This document shows, in pieces, positions 5,658 to 22,269 of a stretch of DNA of 32,000 nt (position 1 is the stretch's first letter; each line of letters opens with the position of its first letter). This DNA comes from Bacillus subtilis subsp. subtilis str. 168 (lineage in GTDB: Bacteria > Bacillota > Bacilli > Bacillales > Bacillaceae): assembly GCF_000009045.1 (NCBI RefSeq), contig NC_000964.3, positions 300,001-332,000 on the forward strand, given 5' to 3'. Position numbers and translations under genes: made by a program. The notes under the pieces were generated by a model that had not been told where the DNA came from, did no database searches, and saw only the letters and a program-made list of their open reading frames with translations.

Positions 5658-6434
5658 ATGTACAAAGATTTAACCGGAAAAACAGCGATTGTGACAGGGT
5701 CTTCAAAAGGAATCGGGAAAGCCATTGCGGAACGGTTCGGAAAGGAGAAAATGAATGTTGTTGTAAATTACCACAGCGACCCGTCTGGAGCAGATGAAAC
5801 TCTGGAAATCATTAAGCAGAACGGAGGGAAAGCCGTCTCAGTTGAGGCGGACGTGTCAAAAGAAGAGGGGATTCAGGCGCTCTTGGACACAGCTTTAGAG
5901 CATTTCGGCACGCTCGATGTGATGGTAAACAACTCCGGTTTTAACGGCGTTGAGGCGATGCCGCATGAGATGAGTCTTGAAGATTGGCAGAGAGTGATTG
6001 ATGTCAATGTTACCGGAACCTTTCTGGGAGCGAAAGCAGCACTTAACCACATGATGAAAAACAATATCAAGGGCAATGTGCTGAATATCTCAAGTGTTCA
6101 TCAGCAGATTCCGCGCCCTGTAAACGTTCAGTATTCCACATCCAAAGGCGGCATCAAGATGATGACGGAAACGCTGGCGCTCAATTATGCGGATAAGGGA
6201 ATCCGCGTCAATGCGATAGCGCCCGGCACCATTGCCACAGAATCAAATGTTGATACGAAAAAGGAAGAGAGCAGGCAAAAACAATTGAAAAAAATCCCGA
6301 TGAAAGCCTTCGGAAAGCCTGAAGAAGTGGCGGCAGCAGCAGCTTGGCTCGTATCTGAGGAAGCAAGCTATGTGACCGGCGCAACACTTTTCGTCGACGG
6401 CGGAATGACACTTTATCCATCTCAGCTTGAATAG
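5658..6434 (+). CDS. ycdF: Short-chain dehydrogenase/reductase, glucose 1-dehydrogenase-like (258 aa)
   Basis: ATG 5658 lies 9 nt after AGGAGG (5643-5648). It carries TGSSKGIG (NAD(P) binding) and a YSTSK catalytic motif. The upstream in-frame extension from 5529 crosses the rapJ terminator. Confidence 0.9.
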   Translation: MYKDLTGKTAIVTGSSKGIGKAIAERFGKEKMNVVVNYHSDPSGADETLEIIKQNGGKAVSVEADVSKEEGIQALLDTALEHFGTLDVMVNNSGFNGVEAMPHEMSLEDWQRVIDVNVTGTFLGAKAALNHMMKNNIKGNVLNISSVHQQIPRPVNVQYSTSKGGIKMMTETLALNYADKGIRVNAIAPGTIATESNVDTKKEESRQKQLKKIPMKAFGKPEEVAAAAAWLVSEEASYVTGATLFVDGGMTLYPSQLE

Positions 6435-6458
6435 AAGACAAAACAGGGGGATTGCGGG

Positions 6459-8144
6459 ATGAAAACAGACTGGTGGAAGGATGCAGTGGTGTACCAAATT
6501 TACCCGAGAAGCTTTCAGGACAGCAATGGAGACGGAATTGGGGACTTGCGGGGGATTATTTCCCGTCTTGACTACATAAAGGAGCTCGGGGCAGATGTGA
6601 TTTGGATTTGCCCGATCTATCCTTCTCCGAATGTTGATTACGGCTATGATGTGACAAACCATAAGGCGATTATGGATTCTTACGGAACAATGGACGATTT
6701 TCACGAGCTGCTGGACCAGGTGCATCAGCGGGGATTAAAGCTGGTGATGGACTTTGTGTTAAATCACACCTCGGTCGAGCATCCGTGGTTTAAAGAAGCG
6801 GAGCTGGACAAAAACAGCAAATACCGTAGCTATTATTATTGGCGTCCCGGCACAAAGAACGGCCCGCCGACGGACTGGCTCTCAAACTATGGATGCCCGG
6901 TCTGGCAATACGAAGAGCACACCGGAGAATACTATCTCCATATGAATGCCGTCAAACAAGCTGATTTAAACTGGGAAAATCCCGAAGTTCGCCAGGCGGT
7001 GTATGACATGATGAAATTTTGGCTCGATAAAGGGGTCGACGGTTTGCGAATTGATCAGCTCCATCTCATTTCTAAGAAAGAATATCTTCCTTCGTATGAG
7101 GACTATATCAATCAGCAGGCAGAGCCGAAGCCCTTTCAGCCAAATGGCGAACGAATCCATGACTATTTAAAAGAAATCACAGATGAAGTGTTTTCTCATT
7201 ATGATGTCATGTCTGTCGGAGAGGTCGGCAGTGTCACACCGGAAGAAGGCCTGAAATATACGGGAACAGATAAGCATGAGCTGAATATGATTTTTCACTT
7301 TCAGCATATGGAGCTTGATCAGCAGCCCGGAAAAGAACATTGGGATTTGAAGCCCCTTGAGCTTTCTGATTTAAAATCGGTTTTGACAAAATGGCAAAAG
7401 AAGCTTGAACATCAAGGCTGGAATACATTGTTTTGGTGCAACCACGACCAGCCCCGGATTGTGTCCAGATTCGGAGACGATGGGGAATACCGCAAAGCAT
7501 CAGCGAAAATGCTGGCAGCCGTAATTTATTTTATGAAGGGCACGCCGTATATTTATCAGGGAGAAGAAATCGGGATGACAAACGCGCCGTTCACCCGGAT
7601 TGAAGACTACAAAGATATCCAAACGATCAATATGTATCATAAACGGGTGTTTGAAAAAGGCTATGATCCAAATGATGTGATGAGATCGATCTTAGCCAAA
7701 AGCCGGGATCACGCCCGGACCCCGATGCAGTGGAACAGCGGCAAAAATGCCGGATTTACTGACGGCACGCCTTGGCTGAAGGTCAATCCGAACTTCACCG
7801 CAATCAATGTGGAGGAAGCGCAGGGAGATCCTGATTCTGTCTTAAACTATTACAAAAAGCTGATCAGCCTGAGAAAGCAGTACGCTGACCTCATGAAAGG
7901 GAGCTTTGATCTTTTGCTTCCGGACGATCCGCAGTTGTTTGTATACATGAGAGAAAACAGTAAACAACAGCTTTTGTCGGTCAATAATTTTTCAAAAGAG
8001 CAGGCTGTTTTTCAGTGGCCTAAGAACTGCGGCAAAGCTCAGGCCTCACTGCTTCTCAGCAATTATAACAACGATGATCTTGATGACGAAATGGTGTTCC
8101 GGCCTTATGAGAGCAGGGTCTATCTTCTGGACAAAACAAACTAA
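6459..8144 (+). CDS. ycdG: GH13 oligo-1,6-glucosidase / alpha-glucosidase (561 aa)
   Basis: ORF track entry. GH13 signatures are DFVLNHTS, GLRIDQLH, GEVG and FWCNHDQPR. It starts 25 nt after ycdF, so the two are probably one operon. Confidence 0.92.
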   Translation: MKTDWWKDAVVYQIYPRSFQDSNGDGIGDLRGIISRLDYIKELGADVIWICPIYPSPNVDYGYDVTNHKAIMDSYGTMDDFHELLDQVHQRGLKLVMDFVLNHTSVEHPWFKEAELDKNSKYRSYYYWRPGTKNGPPTDWLSNYGCPVWQYEEHTGEYYLHMNAVKQADLNWENPEVRQAVYDMMKFWLDKGVDGLRIDQLHLISKKEYLPSYEDYINQQAEPKPFQPNGERIHDYLKEITDEVFSHYDVMSVGEVGSVTPEEGLKYTGTDKHELNMIFHFQHMELDQQPGKEHWDLKPLELSDLKSVLTKWQKKLEHQGWNTLFWCNHDQPRIVSRFGDDGEYRKASAKMLAAVIYFMKGTPYIYQGEEIGMTNAPFTRIEDYKDIQTINMYHKRVFEKGYDPNDVMRSILAKSRDHARTPMQWNSGKNAGFTDGTPWLKVNPNFTAINVEEAQGDPDSVLNYYKKLISLRKQYADLMKGSFDLLLPDDPQLFVYMRENSKQQLLSVNNFSKEQAVFQWPKNCGKAQASLLLSNYNNDDLDDEMVFRPYESRVYLLDKTN

Positions 8145-17724: not shown

Positions 17725-18927
17725 ATGGGAAAACAACAGCCTATATCCCAGCGTAAACTGCTGGGCGTCGCCGGTTTGGGGTGGCTGTTTGATGCAATGG
17801 ATGTCGGAATATTATCGTTTATTATCGCCGCGCTCCATGTAGAGTGGAATCTGTCGCCCGAAGAAATGAAATGGATCGGAAGCGTCAATTCCATCGGCAT
17901 GGCTGCGGGTGCGTTTTTGTTTGGTTTGCTTGCTGATCGAATCGGCCGCAAAAAAGTGTTCATCATCACCCTTTTATGCTTTTCCATCGGAAGCGGCATT
18001 TCCGCTTTTGTGACGAGCTTATCGGCATTTCTAATCCTTCGTTTCGTGATTGGTATGGGACTTGGCGGCGAGCTTCCAGTCGCTTCAACACTCGTTTCGG
18101 AAGCGGTTGTGCCTGAAAAGCGGGGCAGAGTGATTGTGCTTTTGGAAAGCTTTTGGGCCGTGGGCTGGCTCGCAGCGGCCTTGATTTCTTACTTTGTGAT
18201 ACCAAGCTTCGGCTGGCAGGCTGCCCTTCTGTTAACTGCGCTGACTGCTTTTTATGCGCTGTACCTGCGGACGAGTCTACCTGATTCGCCGAAATATGAA
18301 TCGCTTTCTGCCAAAAAGAGGTCGATGTGGGAGAATGTAAAAAGCGTCTGGGCAAGACAGTATATACGGCCGACGGTGATGCTGTCGATCGTTTGGTTCT
18401 GTGTGGTGTTTTCTTATTACGGCATGTTCCTATGGCTCCCGAGTGTCATGCTGCTGAAAGGCTTCAGCATGATTCAAAGCTTTGAATATGTCCTGCTGAT
18501 GACGCTTGCTCAGCTACCTGGCTATTTCTCTGCCGCATGGCTGATTGAAAAAGCGGGCCGGAAGTGGATACTCGTCGTTTACTTGATTGGCACAGCAGGA
18601 AGCGCCTATTTCTTCGGAACGGCGGATTCCTTAAGTCTTCTGCTTACGGCTGGAGTGCTGTTATCGTTTTTCAATCTCGGTGCGTGGGGCGTGCTGTATG
18701 CTTATACCCCGGAGCAATACCCGACTGCGATTCGAGCAACAGGTTCAGGAACGACAGCAGCGTTTGGAAGAATCGGCGGCATCTTCGGGCCTTTGCTCGT
18801 CGGAACCCTGGCAGCCCGTCATATTTCGTTTTCGGTCATCTTTTCAATCTTTTGCATTGCAATCTTACTTGCGGTTGCTTGTATTTTGATTATGGGGAAA
18901 GAAACGAAACAAACTGAGCTAGAATAG
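17725..18927 (+). CDS. yceI: MFS transporter (400 aa), niacin transporter NiaP type
   Basis: ATG 17725 is 8 nt after AGAGG. It has 12 TM segments and the MFS motif GLLADRIGRKK. Confidence 0.88.
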   Translation: MGKQQPISQRKLLGVAGLGWLFDAMDVGILSFIIAALHVEWNLSPEEMKWIGSVNSIGMAAGAFLFGLLADRIGRKKVFIITLLCFSIGSGISAFVTSLSAFLILRFVIGMGLGGELPVASTLVSEAVVPEKRGRVIVLLESFWAVGWLAAALISYFVIPSFGWQAALLLTALTAFYALYLRTSLPDSPKYESLSAKKRSMWENVKSVWARQYIRPTVMLSIVWFCVVFSYYGMFLWLPSVMLLKGFSMIQSFEYVLLMTLAQLPGYFSAAWLIEKAGRKWILVVYLIGTAGSAYFFGTADSLSLLLTAGVLLSFFNLGAWGVLYAYTPEQYPTAIRATGSGTTAAFGRIGGIFGPLLVGTLAARHISFSVIFSIFCIAILLAVACILIMGKETKQTELE

Positions 18928-18930
18928 GAA

Positions 18931-18955
18931 AAGCACCTCTTAAAAGAGGTGCTTT
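18931..18955. terminator. Terminator hairpin A after yceI (U-tract is better on the minus strand)
   Basis: aagcacctctt (18931-18941) pairs with aagaggtgctt (18944-18954). The plus-strand tail is TTTC. The minus-strand tail is TTTTCCTATT. Confidence 0.7.
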
Positions 18956-19150
18956 CAGCGTGTCGACAAACCCTCGCATTCGTTGTCAGGACTGCGCTTC
19001 GGTGCTCAATGCGAAGTGGATCAACGGCTAAATTCTCAGGCGTCCTGCCTAAACGCCGTCGTCATCACATCCTGTGAATGTCCGCTCCTATGCTCGTCCT
19101 TCCTAGACTTCAAGGGTTTTCAATCACGCTGAAAAGATTTTGTCAACAAT
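18956..19150 (+). ncRNA. Candidate structured non-coding RNA / intergenic repeat element (about 195 nt, GC-rich)
   Basis: No ORF. Nested helices: 18956-62 with 19125-31; 18968-74 with 19113-19; 18975-80 with 19008-13; a GCGC-UUCG-GUGC tetraloop hairpin at 18994-19005; GGCGU/ACGCC at 19039-57. It ends at the strong plus-strand terminator B. Strand is inferred from the UUCG loop, the G.U pair and the terminator polarity. Confidence 0.45.
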
Positions 19151-19154
19151 CTGA

Positions 19155-19181
19155 GGCACCTCTTGAATGAGGTGCTTTTTT
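19155..19181 (+). terminator. Terminator hairpin B (near-copy of hairpin A) with a T6 tract overlapping the yceJ stop codon
   Basis: gcacctc (19156-19162) pairs with gaggtgc (19169-19175), followed by TTTTTT (19176-19181). Confidence 0.7.
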
Positions 19182-20352
19182 ACAATTGCGCCCGGGCTGT
19201 GGATTGGCGTTTCCCGGTTTTACTGATTGTCTGGTAGAGCGTCATAGAAAGTATGAACAGAATGGCAGTAAATCCTGTGACAGCTCCGAAATGCTGTGTG
19301 CTTTGATATAAAAAACCTGCAATACTTGTACCGACAGTGGTTCCGGCATACATAGCGGCATTGGAAAGGGAAGCGATGGTTCCTCGCGCATTTGGTGCAA
19401 TGGATTGAAAGACACCCATCATTAACGGAAAGATGATGCCAGCTGTAAAGAACGTGAGAAAAAAGCCGGCTTCTACTAAAAACAAGTTTGGAAAGAACGG
19501 AAGAGCGAAATAGAGAGCGCCCATTAGCAGCATCCCGCTGATCAGTGTTTTAAACATGCCCAGCTTTTCTGAAACCCGGCTGCCGATAAGGCTCCCGAGC
19601 ATATTTCCCAGTCCGAGTACAAGCATAGCTGCGCCAATTTGTGACACGGTTAAATGATAATCCGCGGAAAGCCAAGTACCCAGAAAGCTGAACGATGCGA
19701 AGTTTCCGGTTTGAAACAGAAAATAGGCAAGCAGAATGACCGATGTTTTCGGCAATGAAAAAAGCTCCCGATAGGGGTTGACAATTGATGGGCGCGCCAA
19801 TGGTTCAGAAGGCCGGATGCCAGGCATGACCGCCGCCAGGATCAATAGAAGAATAAGCGAGCACGCTGACAAAACGAAAAATGGCGTATGCCATGTAAAG
19901 GAAGCGAGAAACCCTCCAATAGGAAGTCCGAGCATTTGTGAAGCGGCCAAACCTGCTGTCGCAATCCCCATGCCTTTTATGATCTGAGAAGGCTGGACAA
20001 TGACTGGGATGGACGCCCAAATTTGAGGCGTCACAAACGCAGCGCTAACGCCTGCGGCAAAACGGAACAGGCACATGGCGGCAAAAGAGGGAGCGATGCC
20101 GCATAAAAATGTGGATACGATAAAGCCTGCAAGTCCCCACAGCATGACTGTTTTCCTGTTCAGCCGGTCTGAGATTGGGCCTGCAATGAAAGCGAAGAGT
20201 GCATAACCGAGTGCATAAGCACTGACCATCCAGCCTGACAAATCAGTAGAGACATGAAACTGATCCTGTAAAAGGGGGAGAAGCGGCGAAAGCAAAAAGG
20301 TATCCGTGCCAATGACAAACATGACACTGAAGAAAAGCCAAATGCGATTCAA
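19180..20352 (-). CDS. yceJ: MFS efflux-type transporter (390 aa)
   Basis: The TTG start at 20352 follows AGGAGTGA by about 7 nt. It has 12 TM segments and the motif GPISDRLNRK. Confidence 0.88.
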   Translation of the reverse strand: MNRIWLFFSVMFVIGTDTFLLSPLLPLLQDQFHVSTDLSGWMVSAYALGYALFAFIAGPISDRLNRKTVMLWGLAGFIVSTFLCGIAPSFAAMCLFRFAAGVSAAFVTPQIWASIPVIVQPSQIIKGMGIATAGLAASQMLGLPIGGFLASFTWHTPFFVLSACSLILLLILAAVMPGIRPSEPLARPSIVNPYRELFSLPKTSVILLAYFLFQTGNFASFSFLGTWLSADYHLTVSQIGAAMLVLGLGNMLGSLIGSRVSEKLGMFKTLISGMLLMGALYFALPFFPNLFLVEAGFFLTFFTAGIIFPLMMGVFQSIAPNARGTIASLSNAAMYAGTTVGTSIAGFLYQSTQHFGAVTGFTAILFILSMTLYQTISKTGKRQSTARAQL

Positions 20353-20420
20353 ATTTTATCACTCCTATTGTTTTATAACTTTAAAACTATGAAACAGATA
20401 TGTATAGAGAAAACCCTTTG

Positions 20421-20723
20421 TTAGAGGGTTTCCAAAAAGCCAGGCAGGTATGTTTGAAATGTGTCTTCACGCAGACTGACGTATTTTGTCCGCGAATCTT
20501 TCCGGGTTGCCGTCAATCCCGCTTCACGCAGCGTTTTAAAATGATAAGATGCCGTGGTTTTGACAATATTGCACTTTTCACCTACTTCACCGCAGCTGAG
20601 TTCTTTTCCGCTGACATAAAGCGTACGAATAATGGCAAGCCTTGATTCATCAGACAGTGCTTTAAAAATTTGCGCTCTGATTTGATCATCTGATTGTTTC
20701 ATAGTCATGAAACTATAATACAT
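20421..20723 (-). CDS. yceK: ArsR/SmtB-family winged-helix transcriptional regulator (95-100 aa)
   Basis: The HTH region is SCGEVGEKCNIVKTTASYHFKTLREAGL. None of the three candidate ATGs (20723, 20708, 20702) has an RBS. See the leaderless-mRNA finding. Confidence 0.85.
   Translation of the reverse strand: MYYSFMTMKQSDDQIRAQIFKALSDESRLAIIRTLYVSGKELSCGEVGEKCNIVKTTASYHFKTLREAGLTATRKDSRTKYVSLREDTFQTYLPGFLETL
20696..20713. promoter_or_regulatory. Palindromic operator candidate GTTTCAT-N4-ATGAAAC overlapping the yceK start
   Basis: gtttcat (20696-20702), agtc, atgaaac (20707-20713). It is a perfect 7-bp inverted repeat with the TGAA/TTCA core typical of ArsR-family operators. Confidence 0.5.
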
Positions 20724-21012: not shown

Positions 21013-22269
21013 ATGAGTGTAGATGAGAAACCAATTAAGATAAAAGTCGAGAAAGTCTCTAAGATTTTTGGGAAACAAACAAAGAAGGCAGTTCAAATGC
21101 TTGCCAACGGAAAGACAAAAAAAGAGATCCTGAAAGCAACCGGATCAACCGTTGGGGTTAATCAGGCAGATTTTGAAGTATATGATGGTGAGATATTTGT
21201 CATCATGGGTCTATCAGGGAGCGGTAAATCAACTTTAGTACGGATGTTAAACCGGCTTATTGAACCGACTGCCGGAAATATTTACATTGATGGTGACATG
21301 ATAACAAATATGTCAAAAGACCAGCTCCGGGAAGTCCGCCGGAAAAAAATCAGCATGGTCTTCCAAAAGTTCGCTCTGTTTCCGCACAGAACGATACTTG
21401 AAAACACAGAATACGGACTGGAGCTTCAAGGTGTAGACAAACAAGAGCGGCAGCAAAAAGCGCTTGAGTCTCTTAAGCTCGTTGGACTGGAAGGATTTGA
21501 ACACCAATATCCCGACCAGCTTTCCGGCGGGATGCAGCAGCGTGTCGGCCTTGCCCGCGCGTTGACGAATGACCCGGACATCCTTCTGATGGACGAAGCG
21601 TTCAGTGCGCTCGATCCACTGATTCGTAAAGATATGCAGGATGAGCTTCTTGATCTTCACGATAATGTCGGAAAAACAATTATCTTTATTACGCATGACT
21701 TGGACGAAGCGTTGCGGATCGGCGACAGAATTGTCCTAATGAAGGACGGCAACATCGTTCAAATCGGCACGCCTGAAGAAATCCTGATGAATCCATCTAA
21801 CGAATATGTTGAGAAATTCGTCGAAGATGTTGATTTGTCTAAAGTCCTCACAGCAGGCCACATTATGAAACGCGCTGAAACAGTGCGGATTGATAAAGGG
21901 CCTCGCGTAGCATTGACACTGATGAAAAACCTTGGAATTTCTTCAATTTATGCAGTGGATAAACAAAAGAAATTATTAGGTGTTATCTATGCGTCTGATG
22001 CGAAAAAAGCGGCTGAGTCTGATTTGTCACTTCAAGACATCTTGAATACAGAATTTACGACTGTACCAGAGAATACGTATCTGACTGAGATTTTTGACGT
22101 TGTGTCCGATGCGAATATTCCAATTGCGGTTGTGGATGAGAAGCAAAGAATGAAAGGAATTGTCGTAAGAGGCGCGCTGATTGGCGCACTTGCCGGCAAT
22201 AACGAGTATATCAATGCTGAAGGCACTAACGAACAAACACAAGATCCTTCTGCACAGGAGGTGAAATAA
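21013..22269 (+). CDS. opuAA: Glycine betaine ABC transporter ATPase with C-terminal tandem CBS domains (418 aa)
   Basis: ATG 21013 follows GGAGGG (21002-21007). Walker A is GLSGSGKST, signature LSGGMQQR, Walker B LLMDEAFSALD. Confidence 0.93.
   Translation: MSVDEKPIKIKVEKVSKIFGKQTKKAVQMLANGKTKKEILKATGSTVGVNQADFEVYDGEIFVIMGLSGSGKSTLVRMLNRLIEPTAGNIYIDGDMITNMSKDQLREVRRKKISMVFQKFALFPHRTILENTEYGLELQGVDKQERQQKALESLKLVGLEGFEHQYPDQLSGGMQQRVGLARALTNDPDILLMDEAFSALDPLIRKDMQDELLDLHDNVGKTIIFITHDLDEALRIGDRIVLMKDGNIVQIGTPEEILMNPSNEYVEKFVEDVDLSKVLTAGHIMKRAETVRIDKGPRVALTLMKNLGISSIYAVDKQKKLLGVIYASDAKKAAESDLSLQDILNTEFTTVPENTYLTEIFDVVSDANIPIAVVDEKQRMKGIVVRGALIGALAGNNEYINAEGTNEQTQDPSAQEVK

Follow-up and report, generated by a model that had tools for sequence, protein, structure and literature searches.

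The 1997 genome paper on Bacillus subtilis 168 (Kunst et al.) reportedly described an element of ~190 bp that is present in 10 copies, falls into two subgroups, has relatives in Bacillus licheniformis, and was predicted to form a stable RNA structure. The subject of this report is a non-coding element of 199 nucleotides (nt) in the same strain. It lies between the convergent genes niaP (yceI) and yceJ in a window of 32,000 nt (NC_000964.3, positions 300,001 to 332,000; "window" means this whole stretch, and positions are counted from its first letter). As an object, the element is already known. It is a match to the RNA family RF01690 and the conserved 3' untranslated region (UTR) of yceJ, and it is probably also the 190-bp repeat. 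We take it to be that repeat because its size, copy number, two forms, and orientation fit that description.

The 3' UTR was described from tiling arrays, in which one conserved and highly stable 3' UTR of ~220 nt was found to be common to nine B. subtilis genes at seven loci (PMC2784878). The genes are tcyC, dagK, phrG/argI, ytvA/yttB, efeN, yceJ, and ydcA, with the reverse complement present in efeN, yceJ, and ydcA, and the efeN copy was confirmed to be part of the mRNA by 3' rapid amplification of cDNA ends (PMC2784878). The roles proposed are protection from 3' exonucleases and control of translation or localization, most of the genes being membrane associated (PMC2784878). RF01690 is the Bacillaceae-1 RNA motif. 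Its discoverers stated that it "likely functions in trans" and found it in many gene contexts, sometimes beside ribosomal RNA (rRNA) operons; they read its RUCCU loops as a hint of a homodimeric protein (PMC2864571). The strand of the motif is uncertain, and its reverse complement has CsrA-like GGA loops (PMC4333381). BSGatlas holds 8 Bacillaceae-1 matches.

These earlier descriptions give no known function, and in the sources consulted they are not connected with one another. How might they fit together? Positions 18956 to 19154 are most probably one copy of a non-coding family that resembles transposable elements of the miniature inverted-repeat kind (MITEs), inserted into a terminator shared by niaP and yceJ, with duplication of the whole terminator hairpin. 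Viewing the element as mobile unifies the descriptions. It also accounts for the location of copies at the 3' ends of genes, in either orientation, and for the hairpins being twins.

Twin hairpins around an ORF-free module

The gap between niaP and yceJ is 252 nt, and the same gap with an identical NiaP is found in AP012496.1 and in two other B. subtilis chromosomes, at ~316-320 kb. It opens with one hairpin (A) and closes with another (B), which together form a 23-nt direct repeat with 21/23 nt identical (91%). On the plus strand, hairpin B is followed by T6 and hairpin A by TTTC, with TTT alone left before the element starts. On the minus strand, hairpin A is followed by TTTTCC (UUUUCC in RNA) and hairpin B by CUCAGAUUG (CTCAGATTG), which is no U-tail. 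Each hairpin with its tail folds at ~-16 kcal/mol (-16.3 for A). The combination that marks an intrinsic terminator, a G+C-rich hairpin and a U-run, is found for B on the plus strand and for A on the minus strand; the sides that face inward either are weak or have no U-tail. A simple consensus terminator scan flagged neither hairpin A nor hairpin B. The locus is included in the 2010 discovery alignment of Bacillaceae-1 as NC_000964.2/318464-318931, and hairpin B is marked there as a predicted terminator.

The gap contains no open reading frame (ORF) of 60 amino acids or more, and the two shorter ones present, of 42 and 49 amino acids, are not conserved. It is highly structured: a 255-nt stretch folds at -88.2 kcal/mol on the plus strand (z = -5.3; 0/200 shuffles were as stable) and at -101.5 kcal/mol on the minus strand (z = -7.8). 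The first-pass annotation, made from the letters alone, had seen two hairpins with a shared stem around an ORF-free module, as if one terminator had been duplicated around an insert, and the picture has held. Its description of the module as GC-rich stands only weakly. At 18950-19099 the G+C content is 0.55, and the adjoining DNA has 0.37-0.46 on the upstream side and 0.44-0.45 on the downstream side, but the flanking coding DNA (0.45-0.57) reaches 0.57. It had also proposed looking for other copies, for compensatory changes, and for an Rfam match. The element indeed belongs to a multi-copy intergenic family with covarying helices, and it matches RF01690. What the first reading missed is that the element is mobile and MITE-like and that the duplicated hairpin is the target-site duplication of a whole family.

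The insertion signature

How general is the arrangement of hairpin, element, and hairpin? A 23-mer from the left arm was scanned over genomes and found in at least 120 genome tiles, from which 91 complete copies were extracted in the B. subtilis, B. licheniformis, and B. pumilus groups. As a control for duplication, the flanks of different copies were paired with one another, and the 95th percentile was used as the threshold. In 86/91 complete copies, the element is flanked by a direct repeat above this threshold. The repeat is specific to the locus, and it is a terminator hairpin each time. Its length has a median of 25 nt (typically 20-33, with a maximum of 39), its center falls within 1 nt of the hairpin dyad in 80 of the 86, and it usually includes no more than 1 unpaired nt at each end. 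As read from these aligned copies, insertion makes a second copy of the entire terminator hairpin, with the dyad as the center of symmetry, and yields hairpin, element, hairpin.

Sites with and without the element tell the same story. In four pairs of filled and empty orthologous sites, the empty site has exactly one hairpin. The niaP-yceJ gap itself provides a fifth, in two relatives of the B. mojavensis type (L128/L130) whose NiaP is 97% identical. There, a single hairpin, aaaaggcacctcatgatgaggtgcttttt (aaaaGGCACCTCATGATGAGGTGCttttt), is found, and no element.

The copies occur in several gene contexts, with 38 between convergent genes, 19 in the sense orientation after a tandem gene, and 11 antisense. 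Since both orientations are found, insertion is not tied to the direction of transcription. Insertion at the RNA level, primed by terminated transcripts, was considered while the T-run seemed always to lie on the right; it was dropped in light of these counts. The hairpin copies have also been preserved after insertion. Mismatches between the two copies of a hairpin amount to 0.087 per unpaired position versus 0.019 per paired position (a 4.6-fold difference), and 33 of the 86 pairs are still identical. The lower rate at paired positions indicates that both hairpin copies are under selection.

In its general features the family looks like a MITE: it is small and non-coding (199 nt here, 175-241 elsewhere), has terminal inverted repeats and a target duplication, and is dispersed in copies that are present at some orthologous sites and absent at others. 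The target duplication is unusual for a MITE in that its length varies and equals that of the target hairpin. How could such a duplication arise? The use of either orientation, the inverted-repeat ends, the dyad-symmetric duplication, and a duplication length that tracks hairpin size all point to a palindrome-reading enzyme acting at the DNA level. Such an enzyme would recognize the palindrome or a cruciform and cut both strands at the hairpin's two feet. Repair would then copy the hairpin on both sides, as reported for IS1630, an insertion sequence (IS). The enzyme could have been that of a lost IS or a host protein.

The consequences for termination can be sketched in the same conditional terms. 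After insertion, the outer-facing hairpins would retain their U-tail and the inner-facing ones would lose it. Transcripts from either gene would pass the first hairpin and terminate at the second, so that termination would be kept and moved ~220-250 nt outward. Each gene would thereby gain a long structured 3' UTR of ~220-250 nt, and this tail may slow 3' exonucleases.

The repeat family

Among the matches listed, nearly all tiles come from the B. subtilis, B. licheniformis, and B. pumilus groups, with many tiles per genome. One B. altitudinis genome alone has at least 15 complete copies at unrelated genes. The phage collection gave no match. The plasmid collection gave four, three of which are probably Bacillus DNA in mislabeled records; a blastn search of it found shorter relatives of ~128 nt that consist of the two arms only, have no Rfam core, and again lie between paired, similar, locus-specific hairpins. 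All copies of the family share the ends (T)CAGCGTGT.GACAAA ... TTTGTCAACAATCTGA, an imperfect inverted repeat. The element has the inner motifs TGTAGAC/GTCAACA, and in nearly every copy the left end, once reverse complemented, matches the right-end motif.

Two forms exist. The short form (175-178 nt) is the commonest; it does not have the Bacillaceae-1 core, yet it keeps the arms and the flanking duplication. In the long form (229-241 nt), the Bacillaceae-1 module takes the place of a small hairpin, and RF01690 was matched by all long copies tested. A short-form family profile (nhmmer) matches the window at 18956-19008 and 19081-19138 and detects no other copy in it. A fuzzy match to the left end at position 21426 lies inside coding DNA and was set aside as a chance match.

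Copies within one genome are 89-95% identical, and many insertions are common to several species. This divergence of 5-11% within genomes, together with the shared insertions, indicates that the family is old. To judge from these comparisons, B. subtilis probably holds only fossil copies of a family that looks inactive there. Three copies have been placed in B. subtilis 168, at 318 kb (+), 514 kb (+), and 3773 kb (-), all in the direction of replication. The two long ones (318 kb and 514 kb) are nearly identical in their apical module, which suggests gene conversion between copies or recurrent insertions and deletions (indels).

Some copies are rearranged. Tandem arrays in the order hairpin, element, hairpin, element, hairpin are seen in L121 (-, ~6200-6660) and L006 (-, ~1-400), and one copy (L046) has a partial internal duplication. 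Both elements of an array share rare variants, and the arrays are probably products of unequal recombination between duplicated hairpins rather than of second insertions.

Draft genomes and database records add observations of a more technical kind. Contigs end inside the element in B. xiamenensis HYC-10 (L010, L016-L018, L020, L033, L043, L054, L071, L076, and L079) and in B. pumilus 36R (L055, L097, and L102), as is common for a repeat with too many copies for short-read assembly to resolve. Odd, degenerate continuations at some of the B. xiamenensis contig ends resemble assembly artifacts. The repeat also appears in "plasmid" records of Gram-negative hosts, namely, Klebsiella variicola (L002; CP063894.1) and Stutzerimonas stutzeri (L003/L004; NZ_CP078512.1/NZ_CP078511.1), in a 407-nt Microvirga contig (L092), and in a B. 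subtilis "plasmid unnamed2" (L001). The DNA in these records is typical of chromosomes from the B. subtilis or B. licheniformis group, and they probably represent contamination or contigs that were wrongly assigned.

RNA structure and strand

Which helices are maintained in the element? A model built by hand comprises P1 and P2 (closing helices), P3 (long-range), P4 (a small apical hairpin), and P5 (a 3' hairpin), and it was tested on 78 short-form copies. In this alignment, 96.1% of cells are paired, and two-sided changes occur at 18 pairs (178 cells). The result was not equaled in any of 500 shuffles, and slid controls gave 2-8 two-sided pairs. P3 and P5 supply most of the signal. Three pairs of P3 covary strongly, with 22-26 compensated cells each (alignment columns 43-83, 45-81, and 46-80), and ten pairs of P5 show two-sided changes. 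P1 and P2 are paired in 96-98% of cells with few changes; since they hardly vary, their conservation as DNA is equally possible. The automatic consensus from RNAalifold favored local hairpins that are short and show hardly any two-sided changes, and the long-range model was used in its place.

The copy in the window departs from the family in two respects. Its P3 helix is mismatched (19000 C versus 19089 T; 18998 T versus 19091 T), and the 34-nt P5 module (GACAAAATCCTAAAAC...GTTTTAGGAT), present in other copies, is absent between 19138 and 19139. In full copies, P5 resembles a minus-strand terminator, with a hairpin of -26 kcal/mol followed by UUCUUUUC.

The first-pass annotation had drawn several of these helices. 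Its two closing stems, here P1 and P2, were recovered both in the minimum free energy fold and in an inverted-repeat search. The GCGC-UUCG-GUGC hairpin did not survive. It shows 1 cell with a two-sided change and a loop that varies among copies, and it is a local alternative to P3, the long-range rival that covaries strongly. The GGCGU/ACGCC hairpin clashes with the Rfam structure of Bacillaceae-1.

The element had also been assigned to a plus-strand transcript, either read-through from niaP or an independent small RNA (sRNA), on the strength of the UUCG loop, a G.U pair, and the polarity of hairpin B. The loop, however, is not conserved, and the wobble pairs merely lean to the plus strand (160 G.U-type cells versus 100 on the minus strand) and are not decisive. 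On the minus strand, no U-tail follows hairpin B, and the arrays assign the tail to yceJ (PMC2784878). The documented transcript at this locus is the minus strand, as the 3' UTR of yceJ, and is thus antisense to the Rfam model; plus-strand read-through from niaP is possible. An independent sRNA gene fits poorly with copies that occur at gene 3' ends in either orientation and with a promoter scan of 18600-19500 that found no promoter-like site. All in all, the first reading had the insertion and the family right, some of the helices wrong, and the strand probably wrong.

The right end of most copies (19139-19144 in the window) reads TTGTCA on the plus strand, and the minus strand of the consensus has a perfect TTGACA, which is -35-like. 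Many IS carry -35-like hexamers at their ends. No -10 matching the right-end TTGTCA/TTGACA was seen in the promoter scan.

The Bacillaceae-1 module inside and outside the element

RF01690 is matched by cmscan with 59.9 bits against a gathering score of 35, over the full model (1-67), with an E value of 9.1e-09 for the window and 1.4e-10 for the region. It is the sole Rfam match in the 32-kb window. The two RUCCU-type loops are GUCCU at 19042-19046 and AUCCU at 19069-19073.

Does the module belong to the element? A scan of metagenomes with the core pattern yielded 119 loci, and subtilis-type arms are present in 3 and absent in 98 of the 101 that have enough flank. Some cores lie upstream of 16S rRNA, ~16 nt from its mature 5' end and on the rRNA sense strand, for example, L137:81-145 (-) with 16S at L137:1-64 (-), and also L146 and L155. 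Likewise, in the 2010 alignment the core is found beside rRNA and on the rRNA strand in B. pumilus (NC_009848.1/138137-138604) and in rRNA spacers in Geobacillus (NC_006510.1). The mobile repeat of B. pumilus is of the short form and has no core; there, the core is located in the rRNA leaders. Other cores occupy the apex of other long-hairpin repeats, among them a different, apparently multi-copy one (L139, L147, L153, L156, L165, L167, L173, and L175) with the arms ...gattggagtggagactgggcgactccttgggg... / ...ccccaggaaagcgcccagtcggaacggaaatcaacc... As the core is mostly found outside the element, the module is older and more widespread than the element. In the long form it appears to be cargo, and its distribution suggests that it was picked up from an rRNA operon. 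Some Rfam instances of Bacillaceae-1 would then be passengers in a repeat, not independent sRNA genes.

Weighing the explanations

Could the arrangement be accounted for without a mobile element? One proposal is a stand-alone gene for a trans-acting sRNA, Bacillaceae-1, set between an upstream terminator and its own terminator, with the family formed by duplication of a useful gene. The strong Rfam match, the covariation of the internal helices, and the presence of the core outside the element, such as immediately upstream of 16S rRNA and on its strand, all suit such a gene, but no promoter-like site lies in 18600-19500. Most members (175-178 nt) have no core, yet they retain the arms and the flanking duplication, copies stand at gene 3' ends in either orientation, and the hairpins up- and downstream are the same locus-specific sequence. 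What the arrays see is a 3' UTR, which for yceJ is antisense of the Rfam model (PMC2784878). An sRNA gene of this kind is unlikely. Very unlikely, in our view, is a host cis element that does not move, whether a 3' UTR stabilizer or a bidirectional terminator, spread by recombination and kept to regulate membrane-protein genes. Such roles have been proposed, for genes that are mostly membrane associated (PMC2784878), and both the purifying selection on the stems of the two hairpin copies and the resemblance of P5 to a minus-strand terminator would be in keeping with them. However, a fixed cis element does not explain the exact one- versus two-hairpin states of orthologous sites, the terminal inverted repeats, or the 15 or more complete copies at unrelated genes in a single B. 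altitudinis genome, and homologous recombination has no means of producing, at a new site, a hairpin duplication that is specific to that locus.

Class C group II introns home to intrinsic terminators, and the element might be a remnant of a related, RNA-mediated, terminator-targeting element. It shares with them the terminator targets, a high degree of structure, and insertion a few nucleotides past the stem. The 19 sense and 11 antisense copies relative to the terminated gene do not fit such an origin, though, nor does the symmetric target duplication, which reverse splicing does not produce. The Rfam scan matched no group II or other ribozyme family, and the copies have no associated reverse transcriptase gene; we consider a remnant of this type extremely unlikely. 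Finally, chance structure in ordinary spacer DNA could appeal to the general ease with which 250 nt can be folded and to nothing more. Given the z-scores of -5.3 and -7.8, the more than 120 homologous copies, the covarying helices, and the Rfam match, its probability is negligible.

Insertion of a MITE-like element into the shared terminator is therefore preferred to these four, and what speaks against it should be set out as well. No clear duplication is seen in 5/91 copies. An autonomous partner, as a MITE should have, was not found: no paired ends lie 0.3-3 kb apart in ~1 Mb of loci, tblastn with the Escherichia coli IS30 transposase gave no IS30-like ORF in the Bacillus loci, and a candidate (L109) turned out to be merely a truncated copy beside a cysK-like gene. 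A TGTAGA motif like that of IS30 is present 5-6 nt inside the element ends rather than at the termini. IS30 ends begin TGTAGATTCAA; in the element, TGTAGACAAAC and TGTTGACAAAG begin 5-6 nt in from its ends. On Firmicute plasmids (Listeria, Enterococcus, and Lactiplantibacillus), four copies of the IS30 family lie between ordinary flanks with no hairpin duplication, so the link to IS30 is one of analogy alone and the element is not filed as a member of that family. Long and short forms share an orthologous site (L069:6982-7210 [-] versus L002:3004-3176 [+]) and do so again at a second one (B. subtilis 168 514293-514760, long, versus B. rugosus L008:352-529, short), which means that copies also change by conversion or indels and not by transposition alone. 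The covariation seen in the internal helices speaks for selection acting on a folded strand, something that a purely selfish DNA element would not obviously need. Lastly, read-through at the inner hairpins is suggested by the loss of their U-tails together with the published array data, and this, too, is a weak point.

The locus in detail

The features of the niaP-yceJ gap are collected in Table 1. The terminal inverted repeats are imperfect, with 18955-18970 and 19139-19154 being 81% complementary (13/16 nt). Homologues of NiaP are annotated as the niacin permease NiaP or as a major facilitator superfamily (MFS) transporter, with the Pfam domains MFS_1 and Sugar_tr. On the other side, the T-run of hairpin B overlaps the yceJ stop codon.

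The neighborhood has changed in other ways. The gene yceJ and an adjacent HTH_20 regulator gene are absent in one strain of the B. mojavensis type, in B. atrophaeus, and in B. velezensis (L129:3703-4060, L125:3706-4473, and L126:3703-4086, compared with 19180-20700 of the window). Where this module is absent, niaP is followed directly by an opuA-like ABC transporter operon. Because yceJ is missing from some close relatives, the yceJ module is itself an indel.

Table 1. Features of the niaP-yceJ gap and its flanking genes (window positions)
Feature	Position	Strand	Sequence, basis, and remarks
niaP (yceI), MFS transporter gene	17725..18927	+	ORF list; start 17716/17725; stop 5 nt before hairpin A
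Hairpin A, left copy of duplicated host terminator	18933..18955	.	GCACCTCTTAAAAGAGGTGCTTT; direct repeat D1, palindrome I4
Left terminal inverted repeat	18955..18970	+	TCAGCGTGTCGACAAA; inverted repeat I3
Inserted element, 199 nt, long form minus 3' hairpin module	18956..19154	+	Boundaries from 91 aligned copies
Helix P1, 5' arm	18956..18962	+	CAGCGTG; pairs with 19125-19131
Helix P2, 5' arm	18968..18974	+	AAACCCT; pairs with 19113-19119
Helices P3a and P3c, 5' arms	18985..19002	+	GTCAG ... TGCGCTTCGG; pair with 19087-19108
Bacillaceae-1 RNA motif, RF01690	19012..19078	+	cmscan; two stem-loops, apical module of long form
Helices P3c and P3a, 3' arms	19087..19108	+	CCTATGCTCG ... CCTAGAC; covariation model, long-form alignment
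Helix P2, 3' arm	19113..19119	+	AGGGTTT; fold, inverted repeat, covariation model
Helix P1, 3' arm	19125..19131	+	CACGCTG; fold, inverted repeat, covariation model
Right terminal segment	19132..19154	+	AAAAGAT then TTTGTCAACAATCTGA; right terminal inverted repeat 19139-19154
Hairpin B, right copy of duplicated terminator	19155..19181	.	GCACCTCTTGAATGAGGTGCTTT; hairpin 19156-19178; full T6 tail 19176-19181
yceJ, MFS transporter gene	19180..20352	-	ORF list, Pfam MFS; published 3' UTR spans element (PMC2784878)

Comparison with known systems

How does the element compare with what has been described? The likeness to RF01690 is direct, with a full-length match above the gathering score and two RUCCU-loop hairpins, but the model spans 67 of the 199 nt and covers neither the arms, the terminal inverted repeats, nor the duplicated terminators. 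The conserved 3' UTRs of Rasmussen and coworkers and the element belong to one sequence family in one genome. The element can be aligned with further copies from the B. subtilis group and adjoins a gene that they list, yceJ, and both orientations were noted by them (PMC2784878). The difference is one of interpretation: the sequence was seen there as a gene-linked 3' UTR, with no mention of repeats, mobility, or terminator duplication (PMC2784878). With the element regarded as mobile, the role of this 3' UTR becomes testable, through filled versus empty alleles, read-through, mRNA stability, and the overlap of convergent niaP and yceJ transcripts.

It is evenly balanced, in our judgment, whether the 190-bp repeat, the conserved 3' UTR, and the Bacillaceae-1 locus together make up one previously unrecognized, structure-guided mobile family. 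Such a family would take as targets terminator palindromes of ~20-39 nt and of any sequence, cut at the feet of the hairpin, and keep termination on both sides while adding a long 3' UTR, and one of its sublineages would have spread an rRNA-associated RNA module to the 3' ends of unrelated genes.

Among small bacterial repeats, bcr1 of the Bacillus cereus group, RUP/BOX/SPRITE, Correia, and ERIC are similar in that they are small, non-coding, intergenic, multi-copy, and transcribed with their neighbors, and also in that they form folded RNAs with compensatory changes and vary in presence or absence among strains (PMC3184786, PMC10969869). They differ in their target sites: bcr1 makes a fixed 5-bp duplication, and none of these repeats has been reported to duplicate a whole terminator hairpin (PMC3184786, PMC10969869). 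No repeat of the B. subtilis group is included in these reviews (PMC3184786, PMC10969869). In the literature searched, bacterial MITE reviews included, no earlier report of terminator-hairpin duplication was found, an older report elsewhere being possible, and the arm sequence is not printed in that literature.

The closest parallel in mode of insertion is IS1630 of Mycoplasma fermentans (Calcutt, Lavrrar and Wise, 1999), a member of the IS30 family, in which inverted-repeat targets are duplicated at variable length. Its targets are reportedly rho-independent terminators. IS1630 is, however, an autonomous IS of 1.4 kb in a Mollicute host, with a transposase and inverted repeats of 27 bp, whereas the element described here is a non-coding one of 175-241 nt in Bacillus, and its ends resemble those of IS30 only in the displaced TGTAGA. 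IS1630 is the only precedent found for target duplication of hairpin length. Palindrome-guided insertion with a duplication of this length, so far described only for IS1630-type elements of mycoplasmas, would gain a model organism in B. subtilis.

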